DNA from: Candidatus Hydrothermarchaeaceae archaeon
Lineage (GTDB): Archaea; Hydrothermarchaeota; Hydrothermarchaeia; Hydrothermarchaeales; Hydrothermarchaeaceae
Assembly: GCA_036446855.1 (NCBI GenBank)
Contig: JAZFTU010000153.1
Span: forward strand, 1-40,015
Direction: 5' to 3'
Length of the DNA: 40,015 bases
A model generated the notes under the pieces. That model searched no databases. It saw only the letters and a list, made by a program, of their open reading frames with translations, and had not been told where the DNA came from. Shown one piece after another: positions 29,779 through 36,181 of this stretch (position 1 is its first letter; each line of letters starts with the position of its first letter). Both the position numbers and the translations under genes were made by a program.

Positions 29779-30108
29779 ATGCCCGGCAAAGACTCGGAGG
29801 CCAACATGCCGGCTGACTGTAGAAAGGAATTTTGGGAAAAGGCTCCAAGTGACTGCAAGTATTATCCGTGTCATTTACCGGGGCACGACTGTACATTTTG
29901 CTTCTGCCCCTTTTACCCCTGTCTCGATGGCAAAACCGGGGGAAGATACGTGATAAGCAAAAAGACTGGAAAGGACGTTTGGAGCTGTAAAAAATGCGAT
30001 TGGATTCATAAAAAAGATGTTTCAGTAAGCGTTTTAAGTGAGCTAAAGAAAATTTCAAAAGAGGATAGAAAAAGCCTTTTAGAGATTAGATTGAGATTTA
30101 TAAAATAG
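29779..30108 (+). CDS. Stand-alone 'cysteine-rich small domain' protein
   Basis: DCKYYPCHLPGHDCTFCFCPFYPCLDGKTGG...WSCKKCDWIHK. This dense Cys/His pattern matches the archaeal Cys-rich small domain that I recall being fused to corrin methyltransferases. Confidence 0.65.
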   Translation: MPGKDSEANMPADCRKEFWEKAPSDCKYYPCHLPGHDCTFCFCPFYPCLDGKTGGRYVISKKTGKDVWSCKKCDWIHKKDVSVSVLSELKKISKEDRKSLLEIRLRFIK

Positions 30109-30347: not shown

Positions 30348-30728
30348 ATGGGAAAAAAAATACTTGTAGTTGATGACGAACCAGATTTTCTTTTTATTTT
30401 GAATAATGTCTTAAAAAGAGCAGGATATAATGTCATTTCTGCAAAGAGCGGTAGAGAGTGCCTAAAAAAGGTGGTCAAGGAAAAGCCAGACCTTATTTTT
30501 CTGGACATCATGATGAATGATATGGATGGTTGGGAAGTTTGCAAAAAAATAAAGAAGGACTCCCCTCACATCCCCGTGTCCATGTGTTCGATTCTGCAAA
30601 GCAGTTATGAAATTGACAGGAGCTTTAACTACGCCGGTGCAGATGAGCACCTCAAAAAGCCCATCAATTTTAAAGAGGTTCTTCATACTGCTCAGACTTT
30701 GCAGCCAGAAAATGCCCCTGTAATCTAA
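30348..30728 (+). CDS. Stand-alone response-regulator receiver domain (CheY-like)
   Basis: ILVVDDEPD (acidic pair), LIFLDIMMNDMDG (phospho-acceptor Asp) and HLKKP (conserved Lys-Pro). Strong GAGGAGG upstream. No output domain. Confidence 0.88.
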   Translation: MGKKILVVDDEPDFLFILNNVLKRAGYNVISAKSGRECLKKVVKEKPDLIFLDIMMNDMDGWEVCKKIKKDSPHIPVSMCSILQSSYEIDRSFNYAGADEHLKKPINFKEVLHTAQTLQPENAPVI

Positions 30729-30761: not shown

Positions 30762-32222
30762 ATGGCAAGCATAATGATTCAAGGCACCTCTTCCTATTCT
30801 GGAAAGTCCTTTTTGGTAATGTCACTTTGCAGGATATTTCGAGATAAAGGAGTAAAAGTTGCCCCCTTTAAATCCCAAAACACCTCGCTAAACTCCTTTG
30901 TAACAATCGACGGTAAGGAGATTTCAAGGGCGCAGGCCCTCCAGGCTTTTTCTGCAGGCATAGAGCCCTCGGTTGAAATGAACCCAATACTCATCAAGCC
31001 TTCAGGCGAAAGCAAATCGCAAATCGTTGCATTCGGAAAGCCGTACATGGACATTGACGCGGGGGATTACTACAAAGATTTTGCGTTAAATAAGGGGCTC
31101 AAGATAGTAAAAAAGGCATATAGGGCGCTTGAACGAAAGTACGAATTGATAATAATAGAGGGCGCCGGGAGCCCGGCGGAGATAAACCTTTACAGCCAGG
31201 ACATTGCAAATATGCGAATTGCAGATTTGGCAGATGCCCCGGTAATATTAGTAGCAGACATCGAAAGAGGGGGCGTTTTTGCAAGCATTTTCGGGACGCT
31301 TGCCCTCCTAAAGAAGGAGCATAAAAGGAGAGTTAAGGGCGTTGTGATAAATAAATTTCGGGGGGATATCAAGATACTTGAGCCAGGAATAGAAGAAATT
31401 GAAAAGCTCACAAAAAGAACTGTTTTAGGCGTCATTCCATATATTGAAGGCCTTAGATTACCAGAGGAGGACTCTGTTTCTCTTCAAGATTCCCAAAAAA
31501 ACCAGGGGATAAAAAAAATTGCAGTGATAAGACTCCCAAGAATCTCAAACTTTTCTGATTTTGACCCACTTTTAAATGATGGCATAGATGTTAGATATAT
31601 AAGTGAACCTGAAGAATTAAAATTCGCAGATGCCATCATAATTCCTGGCACCAAAAACACGATAGAGGACCTCAAATGGCTGAGGGACAGAGGTTTTGAA
31701 AAAAATATACGCTCCCTATATGGGACGGTGCCAATAATCGGCATATGCGGGGGCTATCAGATGCTCGGGAATGGTATAACCGATGAATCAGGAGATATTA
31801 GAGGGATGGGCCTTTTAGATGTTGAAACAAAATTCGAAGGATATCACAAAACCACCCGGCAGGTCAGGGGAAAAGTTACAGCAGTATCTGGTATGTTTGA
31901 GGGCATGAGGGGTTGTAAAGTCCGCGGGTATGAAATTCATATGGGGAAGACAGAACTTGGAAGACGTGCAACCCCTGTTTTTGAACTTGAAAATGTGAAG
32001 GAGGGGGCAATTGATGACAAAGGACTGGTATTTGGAACCTACCTCCACGGGATCTTTGACTCTCGGTCATTCAGGGAGGGTTTTTTAAGATTTTTAGGCG
32101 TAAATGCAAATGCTACTTCAAAGTTACAAAAAGAAATTTGGGATGAAAGCATTGATAGAGCAGCAGGTGTAGTCTCAACTTCAATTGACATTTCAAGACT
32201 TGAGGAAGGGCTAGATGTATGA
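30762..32222 (+). CDS. cbiP: Cobyric acid synthase
   Basis: IMIQGTSSYSGKS (P-loop), IIEGAGSPAEINL, and a GATase half with GICGGYQMLG and YLHG. Confidence 0.92.
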   Translation: MASIMIQGTSSYSGKSFLVMSLCRIFRDKGVKVAPFKSQNTSLNSFVTIDGKEISRAQALQAFSAGIEPSVEMNPILIKPSGESKSQIVAFGKPYMDIDAGDYYKDFALNKGLKIVKKAYRALERKYELIIIEGAGSPAEINLYSQDIANMRIADLADAPVILVADIERGGVFASIFGTLALLKKEHKRRVKGVVINKFRGDIKILEPGIEEIEKLTKRTVLGVIPYIEGLRLPEEDSVSLQDSQKNQGIKKIAVIRLPRISNFSDFDPLLNDGIDVRYISEPEELKFADAIIIPGTKNTIEDLKWLRDRGFEKNIRSLYGTVPIIGICGGYQMLGNGITDESGDIRGMGLLDVETKFEGYHKTTRQVRGKVTAVSGMFEGMRGCKVRGYEIHMGKTELGRRATPVFELENVKEGAIDDKGLVFGTYLHGIFDSRSFREGFLRFLGVNANATSKLQKEIWDESIDRAAGVVSTSIDISRLEEGLDV

Positions 32223-33135
32223 GCTCCTAACGGCACTTGGCCTCGCAGTTTTTATTGACAGAGCACTTGGAGAGCCGGAGGACAGGTATCACTCCACCGT
32301 TTGGATAGGCTGGTTTTGTAATCTCATAAAAAGTAGAATGAAAAACACCTATTTTCAAGGGATGATTTTACTCGTTCTAGTTACGGCAATCTCATCAGGA
32401 ATCGCATTACTTTTGATGCATCTTTCCAGGGGGCATGTCCTATCCCTGCTTTTAGGAGGGGTGATATTGAAAATGCAATTCAGCTGGAGGGGCCTCTCAG
32501 ATTATACACTCCCGGTTGGTTTGGCACTGGAGCAGGGAATAGAAAAGGCAAAGGCCTTGCTTCCGTATATCGTCGGTCGTGACACGCAGGGCCTTAACAG
32601 AGAGGAGATTTTATCTGCCACAATAGAATCAATTGGCGAAGGCACAAACGATAGTATAATAGCACCCCTCTTTTACTACCTCCTTTTCGGCTCGGTGTTT
32701 GGCCTTCCTGCAGGAATTTTTGCTGCCGTATTTTTCAGGTCTGTTAACACACTTGACTCTATGGTCGGGTATAAAAAGGAAGGCCTGGATAGACTTGGAT
32801 TTTTTTCTGCAAAATGCGACGATGTCTTAAATTTTTTTCCTGCGCGCCTTACCGCTCTTTTTACAATACTTTCATCGTTTATCCTCCGAAAGAATTTTAA
32901 AAACACTTTGAGGATATTTGTTCGAGATAGGAATAAGACAAAAAGCCCAAATTCAGGTCATGCGATGGCTGCTCTGGCAGGCGCTCTAGGAGTTCGACTT
33001 GAAAAACCCGGACATTACACCCTTGGAGAGCCACTAGGGAAGCTTCAGAGAAGAGACATAAATAGGGCAATTGGAATATCAAATCTCACAACGGTTCTAT
33101 TTTTATTTATGAGCGCCATAATCATGCTCAGATGA
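32215..33135 (+). CDS. cbiB: Adenosylcobinamide-phosphate synthase
   Basis: Multi-TM protein with SPNSGHAMAALAGALGVRLEKPG, characteristic of the CbiB/CobD family. Confidence 0.88.
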   Translation: MYELLTALGLAVFIDRALGEPEDRYHSTVWIGWFCNLIKSRMKNTYFQGMILLVLVTAISSGIALLLMHLSRGHVLSLLLGGVILKMQFSWRGLSDYTLPVGLALEQGIEKAKALLPYIVGRDTQGLNREEILSATIESIGEGTNDSIIAPLFYYLLFGSVFGLPAGIFAAVFFRSVNTLDSMVGYKKEGLDRLGFFSAKCDDVLNFFPARLTALFTILSSFILRKNFKNTLRIFVRDRNKTKSPNSGHAMAALAGALGVRLEKPGHYTLGEPLGKLQRRDINRAIGISNLTTVLFLFMSAIIMLR

Positions 33136-33620
33136 AGGAAAAAATCAGAGAAATTGCAGGTAGTGCAATAGTTGGATTTACTTATTCAAGGTCTCCAGCC
33201 TGGACCAAGAGCGCGACCGTTCTTGTGGCAGGAAGTGATGTAAAACTGGACGTGCCTTCGAAAAAAATCGCATCTTATCTTGAAAAGGGGGGCTTTCGCA
33301 CCAAAATCGTAGATAGGTATGAGTCTGGCATCGATATAAGAAGCCTAGCCATTTCAGCCTCCCTGGGATCTCTTGGAAAAAATGGCCTTGTAGTTACCCC
33401 AAAGTTTGGACCTAGGGCCAGATTTTCTGTCGTGCTTTCAGATGCACAAATAAGGCCAGACAAAAAAGATAAGTTTGATTATTGCAATGGATGCAATAAA
33501 TGTATAGAAAGCTGCCCCTGTGGTGCCATAACTGAAAAGTTCAATATGTCTGCATGTGCAGAGCTTAATAAAGATGAAAGGTGTCTTCGATGCATTGAGG
33601 CGTGCCCCGTTGGAAAGTGA
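33132..33620 (+). CDS. Mini QueG/RdhA-like 2x[4Fe-4S] protein
   Basis: ATGA overlap with cbiB. ASLGSLGKNGLVVTPKFGPRARFSVVLSDAQIRPD is followed by CNGCNKCIESCPCGAI and C-x8-CLRCIEACP. This is colinear with the core-plus-ferredoxin segment of epoxyqueuosine reductase and reductive dehalogenases, but the protein is only 162 aa. Confidence 0.7.
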   Translation: MKEKIREIAGSAIVGFTYSRSPAWTKSATVLVAGSDVKLDVPSKKIASYLEKGGFRTKIVDRYESGIDIRSLAISASLGSLGKNGLVVTPKFGPRARFSVVLSDAQIRPDKKDKFDYCNGCNKCIESCPCGAITEKFNMSACAELNKDERCLRCIEACPVGK

Positions 33621-33623
33621 GAT

Positions 33624-34616
33624 ATGAATATTTCAGGAGCTAGTATTAAAATAAAAAAAGAGGCGATAATAATAAGCCTTAGCTCGCCCTGGAAAGTGCT
33701 TAGCTCAGCCATTATTGGAGGGGGTTCAGATGAGATTAAGCATATCATAATTACAAGGAAAGGTCCCAAAAATAACTTAGGTAAGACCGCGGCCCTATAT
33801 GACCTAGGTAAAAATACTACAGGAACGATATCTTCTTCAGACCTGAAAAATGCAGCGTTCATAAGAAAAAAAAACGTTGGAGCAATCGCCCTAAAAGATG
33901 CGCTAATTCTATTGATAGATTCAAGCCTGACCCGCCCTGCAATGGTAAACGCCGTAAAGATTTCCGCCGAGGCCAGAGCAAAGGCTTTCACCGACTTGGA
34001 TGTGAGGGATAGAGATTCCTGTAGCATAATAATTGCAAGCTCTGGCAGAGGAAAGGCGATAAAATCCACAGGTGCTGAGGAGTCCTTAAACTTGCTCATT
34101 TCACAGGCCACAAGTGAGGCAGTTAAAAAGACTATGCAAACAGAGGAAGACGTCTATCCAAACAGACCCATGGTGAAACGGCTGAAAGAAAGAGGAATCT
34201 TTTTAGACGACCTTGTAAAATCTGCGCTCGAGTTATTTGTCCCCCACAAAGGGCTAAAAAGCAAAAAAAAGGCTAGTGGCATTATCAGAAAAATGCTCTT
34301 AAATGCGCTTCTAGATATAAATGTCTCCTCTCTAATAATTGCAGGACTTCGGCTGGAAGAAGATGGGAGTCTCAACTTAATACCGGGGCTTACCAGAAAG
34401 GAATTTAAAAAAGATGTAGTAAGCATCGTTGCTGATGAAATTTTGGGAATGGCCATAGCTGAATATATCGGCGGCACGCGGGCGAGATTTGAATATGTCA
34501 GGTATGACCGGAGAAAGCCCGGAATCCTAAAGAGGCTTGGGCCCTTTGAAGATGACGTGATCTGCGGCCTTATTTCAGGCGTATCATCTAAGATGTACAG
34601 TGAGGCAGTGGAATGA
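33624..34616 (+). CDS. cbiZ: CbiZ-family adenosylcobinamide amidohydrolase with a ~160-aa C-terminal extension (possibly CobZ/PgpA-like, i.e. a CbiS-type fusion)
   Basis: N-terminal half: WKVLSSAIIGGG...RPAMVNAVKISAEARAKAFTDLDV (CbiZ-like). C-terminal half: VVSIVADEILGMAIAEYIGG resembles the DE..G core of PgpA/CobZ-type phosphatases. The second assignment is tentative. Confidence 0.6.
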   Translation: MNISGASIKIKKEAIIISLSSPWKVLSSAIIGGGSDEIKHIIITRKGPKNNLGKTAALYDLGKNTTGTISSSDLKNAAFIRKKNVGAIALKDALILLIDSSLTRPAMVNAVKISAEARAKAFTDLDVRDRDSCSIIIASSGRGKAIKSTGAEESLNLLISQATSEAVKKTMQTEEDVYPNRPMVKRLKERGIFLDDLVKSALELFVPHKGLKSKKKASGIIRKMLLNALLDINVSSLIIAGLRLEEDGSLNLIPGLTRKEFKKDVVSIVADEILGMAIAEYIGGTRARFEYVRYDRRKPGILKRLGPFEDDVICGLISGVSSKMYSEAVE

Positions 34617-35329
34617 TTAGGGGGCTTAAAAGTGCACTGGGATTTCTAACGATATTACCCGTGGGAATGGACTTAGATACCAAAGTTGTTGCAAGAAGCG
34701 TCTGGCTGTTTCCACCCGTAGGGGTATTTATCGCGATTCTTTCGGCGATGGTTTATAAAGTTTTGATCTTGTATTTACCAAATTCCATTTCGGCGGCTTT
34801 TGCCCTCTTTGCGCTTCTCGTCCTGACAGGTTTTCACCACCTCGATGGACTCTTGGATTTCGGCGATGGGGTGATGTGCGTTGGAAATTTTGAAAGGAGG
34901 AGAAGAGCAATGTATGATGTCAATATCGGTGCCGGCGGATTTGCCATTGGATTTTTTGTCCTCTTAATAACTTTTGCAGCTCTTCTCGAAAATGACTCGA
35001 TAGTTAGAGGGCTCATTGTAGCCGAGGCCTCTGCAAAGTTTTCTATGGTACTTTTGGCATTTGCAGGAAAAGAGTCACATATGGGGATGGGCAGCGCATT
35101 TACTAATGCCGTGGACTTTAGACTTTTATTAATCACGCTTGTTTTTTACCTCCCGACTCTTGCCATCCTGCCCATGGAAAAAGGGATAGTTGTGTTTTTC
35201 GGAACGGTTGCTATCTCTCTTGTTATGACCATTATTTCCTCAAAACTTTTTGGAGGAGTTTCAGGGGACGTTTTTGGCGCAATGAACGAGATTACCCGGA
35301 TGGCCGTACTTGTGGTGCTGCTCCTATGA
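34613..35329 (+). CDS. cobS: Adenosylcobinamide-GDP ribazoletransferase (cobalamin synthase)
   Basis: LKSALGFLTILPV, HHLDGLLDFGDG, multi-TM. ATGA overlap upstream. Confidence 0.9.
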   Translation: MIRGLKSALGFLTILPVGMDLDTKVVARSVWLFPPVGVFIAILSAMVYKVLILYLPNSISAAFALFALLVLTGFHHLDGLLDFGDGVMCVGNFERRRRAMYDVNIGAGGFAIGFFVLLITFAALLENDSIVRGLIVAEASAKFSMVLLAFAGKESHMGMGSAFTNAVDFRLLLITLVFYLPTLAILPMEKGIVVFFGTVAISLVMTIISSKLFGGVSGDVFGAMNEITRMAVLVVLLL

Positions 35330-35922
35330 AACTTAGTGCTCTGATTATGGCAGGAGGGAAGGGGACGAGGCTTGGAGCAGGGGTAGAAAAGCCGCTTTTA
35401 GAGCTAAACGGCAAATTTTTAATAGATTATGTAATTCGGGCCGTAGAAAGGTCCGGGCACATAGGCCAGATATGGGGAGTGACCAGCCCTTACACAAAAA
35501 AGACTGAAGAATACTTAAAAAAAAAGAATCTCAAAGTGCTTCGAACGCCGGGAAAGGGATATGTGGAGGATTTGGTGCTTGCAATTAGCAGGCTGGACCT
35601 CGAAAAAACGCTGGTTGTCTCAGCGGACATTCCTCTTTTGACATCCCGAGACATAGACTGGGTAATCAGAAAATATCTAGTGCAGGGACTTTCTGCCCTT
35701 TCTGTTGTTTTGCCTCTTGACATTGTAGAAAAAAGTGGCGTTCGCCCAGATACCATCATAGAGGGGCATGTCCCCGCAGGAATTAATATTATTGACGGAA
35801 AAAATTTAAATGGTGACGAATTCAAACTTATAACAAAGAAATCAAAATTCGCAATAAATGTGAATACAATTGGAGACTTTAAACTTGCTCTAAGGAGGAT
35901 AAAATATGCCAGTAAGCAGTGA
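35326..35922 (+). CDS. cobY: Archaeal adenosylcobinamide-phosphate guanylyltransferase
   Basis: ALIMAGGKGTRLG nucleotidyltransferase motif, about 198 aa. Located after cobS with an ATGA overlap. Confidence 0.8.
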   Translation: MKLSALIMAGGKGTRLGAGVEKPLLELNGKFLIDYVIRAVERSGHIGQIWGVTSPYTKKTEEYLKKKNLKVLRTPGKGYVEDLVLAISRLDLEKTLVVSADIPLLTSRDIDWVIRKYLVQGLSALSVVLPLDIVEKSGVRPDTIIEGHVPAGINIIDGKNLNGDEFKLITKKSKFAINVNTIGDFKLALRRIKYASKQ

Positions 35923-36181
35923 ACTGTTAGAGATTCTTGCATGCCCAATAGACAAAAAAGATGTGGAATATAAAAAAGATGCCGACTTTTTGAATTGTAC
36001 AATTTGTGACATTAGATATCTTGCAGATAGAGTTAAGGGGGAGACCTGCCCCAAGTGCAGTGGGAAGATGGAAAAGATAAAGGGAGAAGTTTTAATCTGC
36101 AGCGAATGCAATAGATGGTACCCGATAATAGACGACATCCCGCACATGCTGCCTGATGAACTGAGGGAAGATTTGGCCTAA
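35906..36181 (+). CDS. Trm112-like zinc-ribbon protein with an inserted extra CxxC pair
   Basis: LLEILACPIDKKDV...CSECNRWYPIIDDIPHMLPDE is the Trm112/UPF0434 pattern. The insertion carries CTIC...CPKC. AAGGAGGA lies 8 nt upstream. Overlaps cobY by 17 nt. Confidence 0.7.
   Translation: MPVSSELLEILACPIDKKDVEYKKDADFLNCTICDIRYLADRVKGETCPKCSGKMEKIKGEVLICSECNRWYPIIDDIPHMLPDELREDLA

Follow-up and report, generated by a model that had tools for sequence, protein, structure and literature searches.

Organization of the operon

The window, a stretch of 40,015 nucleotides from a Candidatus Hydrothermarchaeaceae archaeon (contig JAZFTU010000153.1), encodes a near-complete de novo B12 pathway. Its + strand carries a conserved operon that includes cobQ/cbiP, the gene of cobyric acid synthase (30762..32222; NF001989, E 7.5e-181, and synteny), and cbiB, which encodes adenosylcobinamide-phosphate synthase (32215..33135; PF03186, E 1.1e-79; NF002281 above cut-off). 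Overlapping the end of cbiB on the same strand lies the open reading frame of interest, here labeled X (33132..33620, stop codon included), which encodes a protein of 162 aa. Its ATG is located inside an ATGA that it shares with the cbiB stop codon, and its TGA ends at 33620, 3 nt before the next gene begins at 33624. The initial annotation had described the same gene, the same overlap and the same spacing to a cbiZ-like gene, and all of these agree with our coordinates. The downstream gene (33624..34616, +) encodes a CbiS-like fusion of CbiZ-like and CobZ parts, in which residues 186-326 match CobZ (TIGR03161, E 9e-43). Its match to CbiS (NF038002, E 6e-38) lies under the cut-off, Pfam CbiZ covers the C-terminal part only, and relatives have only a 150-aa CobZ at this position. 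The operon continues on the + strand with cobS (cobamide synthase; 34613..35329; TIGR00317, E 9e-53) and cobY (adenosylcobinamide-phosphate guanylyltransferase; 35326..35922; TIGR00454 and NF045495).

Based on its reading frame, homology, fold and conserved family, X was assigned as a minimal class-III-type (RdhA/QueG-like) Fe-S protein with two domains. The N-terminal alpha/beta domain (residues 1-112; 33132..33467, +), supported by AF2, Foldseek and alignments, holds D61, E64, R70, a GxxGKNGL-x2-TPxFGPRxR block and R97. Its predicted fold is the nitroreductase-like one with which RdhA, QueG and CblC bind base-off cobalamin. The C-terminal 2x[4Fe-4S] ferredoxin-type domain (residues 113-162; 33468..33617, +) is marked by Pfam Fer4-family matches and invariant cysteines. 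These are arranged as C118-x2-C121-x2-C124-x3-C128-P, then C142, then C151-x2-C154-x3-C158-P, and the protein stops four residues past the last of them. This corresponds to the scheme by which RdhA and QueG hold two [4Fe-4S] clusters (CX2CX2CX3CP...C...CX2CX3CP), and the eight cysteines and both prolines are invariant in all 30 family members. The motifs quoted in the initial annotation, SLGSLGKNGLVVTPKFGPRARF, CNGCNKCIESCP and C142-x8-CLRCIEACP, were all located in X.

Relationship to QueG, RdhA and CblC

In profile searches, X matched the NCBIfam models RDH (TIGR02486; E 3.6e-13, residues 18-138) and QueG (TIGR00276; E 2.7e-11, residues 66-141). The best match in a sequence search of the PDB was PceA 8q4h (E 1.5e-16, residues 21-136), aligned across the second half of the corrinoid-binding core and cluster 1, with further matches to PceA 4uqu (1.9e-9), QueG (~6e-8) and NpRdhA (~1.5e-6); the family profile reached E 1.7e-18 against the PDB. 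A comparison of the X family with E. coli QueG by hhalign gave a probability of 98.8-99.2% (E 1e-16 to 5e-19) over residues 1-162. The resemblance to RdhA and QueG, initially proposed by eye, is thus statistically sound and reaches past the Fe-S motifs. Structure prediction led in the same direction: pLDDT values were 80-97 across residues 1-115, and the N-domain was confident in both of two independent AF2 models. Two Foldseek searches yielded 32 and 54 matches at E<=1e-3, and the best 50 matches listed per search were RdhA, QueG or CblC throughout, which are base-off cobalamin binders. A nitroreductase-like core N-terminal to the ferredoxin domain, as found in RdhA and QueG, is therefore present in X in a structure that is predicted, not solved. 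Sequence, profile and predicted fold thus agree that X is truly related to QueG and RdhA, in minimal form.

Two simpler explanations of the gene were ruled out. A generic ferredoxin joined to an unrelated N-domain does not account for X, because its similarity to RdhA and QueG in sequence, profile and fold runs through that domain; X also differs from dicluster bacterial-type ferredoxins (~55 residues) in that residues 1-112 form a separate, conserved and confidently predicted domain. Nor is X the remnant of a decaying RdhA or QueG gene, since many lineages keep the 160-210-aa form (27-91% identity) and its cluster ligands do not vary.

QueG (B. subtilis 5D08, S. thermophilus 5D6S) shares with X an N-terminal alpha/beta cobalamin-binding fold followed by 2x[4Fe-4S], with a query-normalised Foldseek TM of 0.60-0.65 and a common eight-Cys scheme, and the cluster spacing of X equals that of QueG minus the Fd-insert (PMC5175355). 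X is much smaller (162 aa compared with ~380 aa) and lacks the Cbl-insert, the Fd-insert, the DYH motif (Tyr/His) and the HEAT-like tRNA-binding domain. It falls outside QueG proper, scoring 43 bits against a TIGR00276 cut-off of 200 and showing no match to PF08331 (DUF1730). Unlike QueG, it is encoded in an archaeal B12 loop-assembly operon, and to our knowledge archaea do not synthesize queuosine.

RdhA proteins (PceA 8Q4H and 4UQU, NpRdhA 4RAS) have the GPRxR motif in common with X and match its predicted fold with a probability of 1.0. X has no TAT signal (its N-terminus, MKEKIREIAG, contains no twin-arginine motif), no C-terminal unit and no aligned equivalent of Tyr246. It likewise falls outside RdhA proper, which we took to comprise full-length catalytic subunits of ~450-500 aa, with 50 bits against a TIGR02486 cut-off of 160 and no match to PF13486. 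Among the ORFs adjoining X, we found no rdhB-like gene and no small membrane-anchor gene. The initial description of X as lacking both terminal regions of these enzymes needs to be refined. The C-terminal domain is indeed absent, and so are ~250 N-terminal residues compared with RdhA, but against QueG there is no truncation at the N-terminus: the first helix and strand of QueG are apparently retained in a stretch of the alignment that has low confidence.

The third structural relative is CblC/MMACHC, the human B12-processing enzyme, which shares the nitroreductase-like fold (Foldseek E 1e-4 to 4e-4), whereas its sequence similarity to X is undetectable. CblC binds cobalamin base-off and handles the free cofactor without using it for substrate catalysis; it has no Fe-S domain and relies on flavin or glutathione. 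As an analogy, it is the functionally nearest one for a protein acting on corrinoids themselves. X could mediate a CblC-like processing step for salvaged corrinoids. Foreign upper ligands (cyano or alkyl) on cobinamide or cobamides taken up by the cell would be removed reductively, Fe-S clusters standing in for the CblC flavin, and CbiZ, CbiB, CobY and CobS would then rebuild these corrinoids. Beyond the fold similarity, a CbiZ-type salvage domain is encoded in the operons of the window and of locus L154, and a BtuF-like binding protein and an ABC transporter are encoded near the latter. We nevertheless give this idea little credence: the CbiZ domain is absent from most X-containing operons, the window encodes the near-complete de novo route described above, and the mechanism overlaps with the corrinoid docking and cobalt reduction that we favor below.

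A further set of proteins, RACo, RamA, PduS, CobR and FldA, performs the same job as we propose for X, namely the delivery of low-potential electrons to Co(II) corrinoids. RamA and PduS each carry two [4Fe-4S] clusters. The folds of the ASKHA ATPases RACo and RamA and of the flavoproteins PduS and CobR are unrelated to that of X, which contains neither an ATPase nor a flavin domain, and the RamA profile gave weak matches to the ferredoxin part of X only.

Putative corrinoid-facing residues

The N-domain of X comprises ~110 residues, compared with ~190 in QueG, and is as conserved as the Fe-S domain. The catalytic Asp134 and the lower-face Arg141 of QueG in B. subtilis numbering (D139 and R146 in E. 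coli QueG) align with D61 and R70 of X, respectively. Position 70 is Arg or Lys in 27 of the 30 members, and D61 is kept in 10, all within the subclade of the window. PceA Arg305 has its counterpart in R97, a position with Arg in 27 members, and 22 members have E, D or N at position 64. In QueG, Arg141 sits 4 A beneath the corrin, and the clusters, at -575 and -510 mV, have potentials fit for reducing cob(II) to cob(I) (PMC5175355).

Other parts of the site are missing. The QueG pocket is built from three regions (PMC4646009), two of which are absent from X, so that a partner or a dimer may be needed for corrinoid binding. In our alignments, X also has no counterpart of the class-III tyrosine above the corrin (Tyr101 in S. 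thermophilus QueG, Tyr246 in PceA). The QueG DYH motif aligns with S35-D36-V37-K38, and across the family the Tyr position is occupied by V, G, S, E or A, or by Phe in the long forms, with no invariant Tyr or His.

In the long-form members (203-209 aa), position 64 is Asn and an additional loop, GV(R/K)YPxW...RQFID, is conserved. We considered whether the YPxW loop supplies the RdhA/QueG catalytic tyrosine and did not establish this, as the alignments place the QueG Tyr on the Phe further downstream. The long-form loop and Asn64 are reminiscent of RdhA active sites, and together with the alignment of R97 they would fit X being a true catalytic class-III reductase, which would use a cobamide as its cofactor and reduce a small non-corrinoid substrate for loop assembly, for example a lower-ligand or linker precursor. 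Several features make such an activity highly improbable. The short form in the window lacks the long-form loop altogether, V, G, S and F are among the residues found where QueG has its Tyr, and the substrate-binding domain is absent. In addition, we know of no reductive step that is missing from loop assembly.

The same losses bear on whether X binds a corrinoid at all. A dedicated low-potential ferredoxin, whose N-domain persists as a vestigial scaffold or docking surface and which donates electrons to, say, an adenosyltransferase or the PF04071 Cys-rich protein, would need neither the catalytic tyrosine nor the pocket-forming inserts. In NpRdhA, a duplicated domain is non-binding, and this vestigial N-domain also matches the profile weakly. 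Pfam thresholds are reached only by the Fe-S part of X, with Fer4 matches limited to residues 110-161. The best-conserved N-domain block, GxxGKN..., may contact cluster I (PMC4646009) and may serve the packing of the Fe-S domain instead of the corrin. We still regard a plain ferredoxin as unlikely, given that the N-domain is no less conserved than the Fe-S domain and that both the lower-face Arg and the PceA-Arg305 position are kept in 27 of 30 members. Moreover, a simple donor would not require the tight coupling to CbiB or the fusion to CobY described below, and neither enzyme performs redox chemistry.

Distribution, gene context and proposed role

The X family is restricted to Hydrothermarchaeota, where a single clade unites the cob-linked genes with their paralogs, apart from QueG, RdhA-like proteins and other archaeal homologs. 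Of 30 cbiB-positive genomes from the same order, 14 carry X directly 3' of cbiB, and this placement is also seen in all seven metagenomic representatives with enough contig; the two genes usually overlap. The other 16 genomes lack X in an otherwise identical operon, and none of 90 cbiB-positive archaeal genomes that we sampled beyond this order has it. With about half of the related operons doing without it, X is an accessory component. One metagenomic protein (P0041) is a CobY::X fusion, encoded in the operon cobD-cbiB-cobT-cbiS-cobS-cobY::X. No cob linkage was found for bacterial mini and tandem relatives (Lentisphaerota, Kiritimatiellia, Syntrophales and others).

The link to cob genes anticipated by the initial annotation is thus strongly conserved, through the adjacency to cbiB and the single fusion, but this conservation does not extend to cbiZ. 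Relatives have a stand-alone CobZ, CobT or CobS after X, which leaves the suggested part in cobinamide remodelling without support. Service to adenosylation, the other suggestion, gains nothing from co-occurrence with CobA, which is present in 6 of 15 X-carrying genomes compared with 10 of 16 genomes without X. Counted by genus (three X+CobA-, three X+CobA+, seven X-CobA+ and four X-CobA-), there is no signal of co-occurrence or anti-correlation, and we rejected the CobA adenosyltransferase as a partner. A PduO-type enzyme was found in none of the genomes surveyed, whether X-carrying or X-less.

The position of X between two integral-membrane enzymes, the fusion to CobY, the predicted open, roofless corrin face and the accessory distribution are all consistent with a corrinoid carrier, chaperone or sensor. 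Such a protein would bridge the soluble steps and membrane-bound CbiB and CobS by retaining base-off intermediates, with clusters that are structural or report on redox state. This role seems quite improbable to us in view of the eight invariant ligands, whose arrangement is the one that wires electrons to cobalt in RdhA and QueG (PMC4646009). The fold offers no precedent either: a redox-less carrier built on it is not known to us.

We instead favor, with a probability of roughly 0.4, an accessory role for X in loop assembly or salvage, in which the protein would dock incomplete corrinoids in their base-off state and hand low-potential electrons to the cobalt. Binding of base-off corrinoids is suggested indirectly by the predicted fold, the alignment of R70 with QueG Arg141 and the cob operon context. 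X would represent the stripped-down redox core of class-III cobalamin enzymes, a nitroreductase-like domain of ~110 residues packed on a two-[4Fe-4S] ferredoxin domain, without substrate-binding inserts, catalytic Tyr or C-terminal domain. Through translational coupling it would be made together with CbiB, and its putative partners would be the membrane-associated nucleotide-loop enzymes CbiB, CobY and CobS. The N-domain would dock cobyric acid, cobinamide, cobinamide-phosphate or cobinamide-GDP, with the conserved Arg70 under the ring; having no lower base, these corrinoids are naturally base-off. The two low-potential clusters would then pass ferredoxin electrons to cobalt, presumably taking Co(III)/Co(II) towards Co(I), and the open upper face could leave the cobalt, once reduced, exposed to upper-ligand chemistry or ready to be passed on to the next enzyme. 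A more specific proposal, which we regard as doubtful, is that the clade consists of stand-alone corrinoid reductases. These would hold a pathway intermediate in the RdhA/QueG cofactor site, supply Co(I)/Co(II) corrinoid to the CbiB/CobY/CobS line and fill the cobalt-reduction step of anaerobic and archaeal B12 synthesis in these archaea, perhaps with the PF04071 Cys-rich protein in lineages that encode AdoCbl-dependent NrdJ but neither CobA nor PduO.

The electron source for cobalt reduction in anaerobic and archaeal B12 intermediates has never been tied to a dedicated protein, and CbiB and CobS are poorly characterised membrane proteins of the nucleotide loop. X is small, soluble and coupled to the operon, with the cofactor wiring that QueG and RdhA use for cob(I), and is therefore a concrete candidate, open to expression and assays. 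It is an undescribed candidate for reducing or handling B12 intermediates: we found no paper describing it, and a literature search on cob operons and on Hydrothermarchaeota turned up no relevant account of a gene resembling those of QueG or RdhA. X is the most compact form of the class-III B12 enzyme core known so far. It can inform ideas on how RdhA and QueG arose through added inserts and domains, and provides a minimal scaffold for the study of electron transfer from Fe-S clusters to cobalt. Public records name it "epoxyqueuosine reductase" or "4Fe-4S protein"; the former label is a mis-assignment and needs correcting.

Most X paralogs occur in non-cob contexts, next to HdrD-like, URO-D, CMD, rhodanese, TusA or ThiS genes. 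A general tie to RACo, the corrinoid reductive activator, was considered and dropped, as the adjacency occurs in a single genome, where one paralog is translationally coupled to the RACo gene.

Gene and operon context

The 162-aa minimal RdhA/QueG-like Fe-S protein, here termed X, is encoded at 33132–33620 on the forward strand. Its ATG shares the stop codon of cbiB (32215–33135; PF03186, E 1e-79) in an ATGA overlap, and its stop lies 3 nt before the next ATG (33624), which opens a gene (33624–34616) whose 330-aa product combines a CobZ phosphatase (E 9e-43) in one half with a partial CbiZ-like sequence in the other. Family profiles confirmed CobS and CobY in the flanking region, and matched CobQ, a receiver domain, a Cys-rich PF04071 protein and CobD upstream. 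The reading frame, overlap, spacing and neighboring genes described in the initial annotation were all confirmed, and every sequence motif that it quoted was found in X.

The joining of CobZ to a CbiZ-like N-terminal domain (CbiS-like) occurs elsewhere only in the metagenomic locus L154, and relatives encode CobZ as a stand-alone protein of 150 aa. The CbiZ model leaves the first ~93 residues of the window protein unmatched, so its amidohydrolase half may be degenerate. A Trm112-like zinc-ribbon gene (window 35906–36181; loci L013–L033 and L119–L129; 65–82% identity within the order) is the last gene of the cobS-cobY operon in nearly all genomes of the order, and its placement is therefore conserved, not incidental. 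The gene for a stand-alone receiver domain (30348–30728), located upstream of cobQ, is found again within the genus, with two tandem copies in genome G001, and also near cob genes in family f2. In nearly all operons of the order, the PF04071 gene (29779–30108) sits between cobD and cobQ, just before the latter. The class II (AdoCbl-dependent) RNR NrdJ was found in 22 of 26 searched genomes of the order, and its gene is mostly paired with cobA, which lies beside nrdJ in ten sister genomes. In genomes G000 and G007, which contain neither CobA nor PduO, a second PF04071 gene takes the place of cobA beside nrdJ. In both G000 (contig C132, locus L156, 1054–3463) and G007, this 'zf-like' Cys-rich gene overlaps the nrdJ end, as does a PF04071 gene at one of the two NrdJ loci of G015. 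This position, together with the one in the cob operon, hints that PF04071 proteins handle corrinoids or have a role related to adenosylation.

Homology and domain anatomy

Pfam detected Fer4-type motifs alone in X (residues 110–161). The NCBIfam RDH model (residues 18–138, E 3.6e-13) and QueG model (residues 66–141, E 2.7e-11) also matched, both far under their curated cut-offs. A PDB sequence search returned Desulfitobacterium PceA first (8Q4H, E 1.5e-16; X residues 21–136 paired with 276–390), followed by S. multivorans PceA, two QueG structures and NpRdhA, and values improved with the X family profile. With hhalign, a 30-member X family aligned over the whole protein with an E. coli QueG alignment (probability 98.8–99.2%). 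Two AlphaFold models, one from 8 and one from 15 sequences, predict the N-domain confidently (pLDDT 80–97, residues 1–115) and the cluster domain less so, in keeping with the absence of the metals. Foldseek searches of the PDB with these models gave 32 and 54 matches at E<=1e-3; among the 50 matches listed per search, all were RdhA, QueG or human CblC/MMACHC, to our knowledge the three proteins in which this fold is known to bind base-off cobalamin. The proposed kinship with QueG and RdhA is thus borne out by sequence, profile and predicted-fold matches that reach past the Fe-S motifs, and since these matches cover the N-domain, the alternative of a generic ferredoxin attached to an unrelated N-domain was ruled out. 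That X is a plain dedicated ferredoxin, a reading with which the Pfam result would agree, appears unlikely; a CblC-like deligase for salvage, to which the MMACHC matches might point, is very improbable.

Compared with QueG, X lacks the Cbl-insert, the Fd-insert and the C-terminal HEAT-like tRNA domain (hhalign), three pieces described by Dowling et al (PMC5175355) as the RNA-binding part itself and the platform that carries it. Its N-terminal helix and strand align at low confidence with QueG residues 10–34, which suggests that X is a minimal core, and not a QueG shortened at its N-terminus. RdhA, by contrast, has about 250 N-terminal residues that X lacks. The earlier description of missing N- and C-terminal regions therefore holds for the C-terminus (the QueG tRNA domain) and for the N-terminus relative to RdhA, but not for the N-terminus relative to QueG.

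In profile alignments, R70 occupies the position of Arg141 in B. subtilis QueG, a residue 4 A under the corrin that closes off the lower axial site (PMC5175355); 27 of 30 family members have Arg or Lys here. R97 corresponds to PceA Arg305 (Arg in 27/30), and position 64, by extrapolation, to PceA Asn272 (E/D/N in 22/30), while D61, at the position of the catalytic QueG Asp134, is conserved solely in the window's subclade. The QueG DYH motif, which carries the conserved Tyr of RdhA/QueG-type enzymes, maps to S35-D36-V37-K38, and no conserved Tyr or His was found there in the 30-member alignment. Longer members (203–209 aa) have an additional GV(R/K)YPxW...RQFID loop after strand 2, at most a putative counterpart of the catalytic loop. 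A true reductase acting on a small substrate, for which the extra loop of the longer members and the R97 position might speak, seems quite improbable. Public records name these proteins "epoxyqueuosine reductase" or "4Fe-4S binding protein"; X falls under the curated thresholds of both QueG and RdhA and lacks the defining domains of each, so that neither name is warranted. Our literature search found no paper describing X.

Distribution and operon linkage

A word-based homolog search with X yielded only seven close relatives, all of 162–167 aa, and an exhaustive profile search yielded ~1000 at E<1e-10, only five of them at E<1e-30. Among 301 archaeal genomes (cbiB in 120), an X-like gene adjoins cbiB only in the window's order, where this applies to 14 of 30 cbiB-positive genomes and 4 of 10 families. 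All seven metagenomic representatives with sufficient flanking DNA likewise contain cbiB-X, mostly with overlapping stop and start codons, followed by cobZ, cobT or cobS-cobY. The linkage to cob genes thus extends beyond the window. One operon, cobD-cbiB-cobT-cbiS-cobS, is closed by a natural CobY::X fusion (P0041, 399 aa; L154 6001–7200), and a related operon encodes a natural CobQ::CbiB fusion (743 aa; L148 1844–4075). In a maximum-likelihood tree, cob-linked X genes and their paralogs form one clade (support 90/84), placed in Hydrothermarchaeota by named records and apart from QueG, RdhA-like proteins and other archaeal homologs of 230–340 aa. No cob linkage was found among bacterial relatives.

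X is accessory, since the same operons occur within the order without it: in G003, G006, G007 and G015, cbiB is directly followed by cobZ or cobS. Archaeal cobT takes the X position in G011 and G019, of the same order, and in G255, an archaeon outside it. A CobA-type adenosyltransferase occurs in 6 of the 15 genomes with X and in 10 of the 16 without it; X is not strictly a partner of CobA. The PduO type was found in none of either set.

Proposed function and paralogs

Two points are solid: X is a genuine and conserved protein that represents a minimal, hitherto undescribed form within the RdhA/QueG structural superfamily, and its function is tied to CbiB and to the assembly of the nucleotide loop. 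In the only use of this domain pair known to us, a base-off corrinoid is positioned against a wire of two clusters, which reduces its cobalt to Co(I). No lower base is present in the intermediates that CbiB, CobY and CobS handle, and X has no roof over its predicted corrin site. From these features, we infer with a probability of about 0.4 that X would dock these loop-assembly intermediates, or salvaged ones, and reduce their cobalt. A carrier or sensor, with which a roofless site might also agree, is improbable.

Most X paralogs lie in an HdrD-like/URO-D/CMD cluster or have rhodanese and ThiS genes nearby. In f2, this conserved cluster (L016, L134–L137, L163) comprises HdrD-like (CCG), CMD, URO-D/MtaA-like, CMD and X' genes and adjoins DsrE/TusA genes. 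Another f2 paralog (G024; L018 5756–8990) is translationally coupled downstream of the corrinoid activator RACo and upstream of an FmdE-like gene, a suggestive link seen once only. In Kiritimatiellia and Lentisphaeria MAGs, with no cob genes nearby, many proteins of 470–800 aa (P0011–P0047; L036, L041, L048, L049) consist of two to four tandem mini RdhA/QueG-like modules, each a core plus dicluster.
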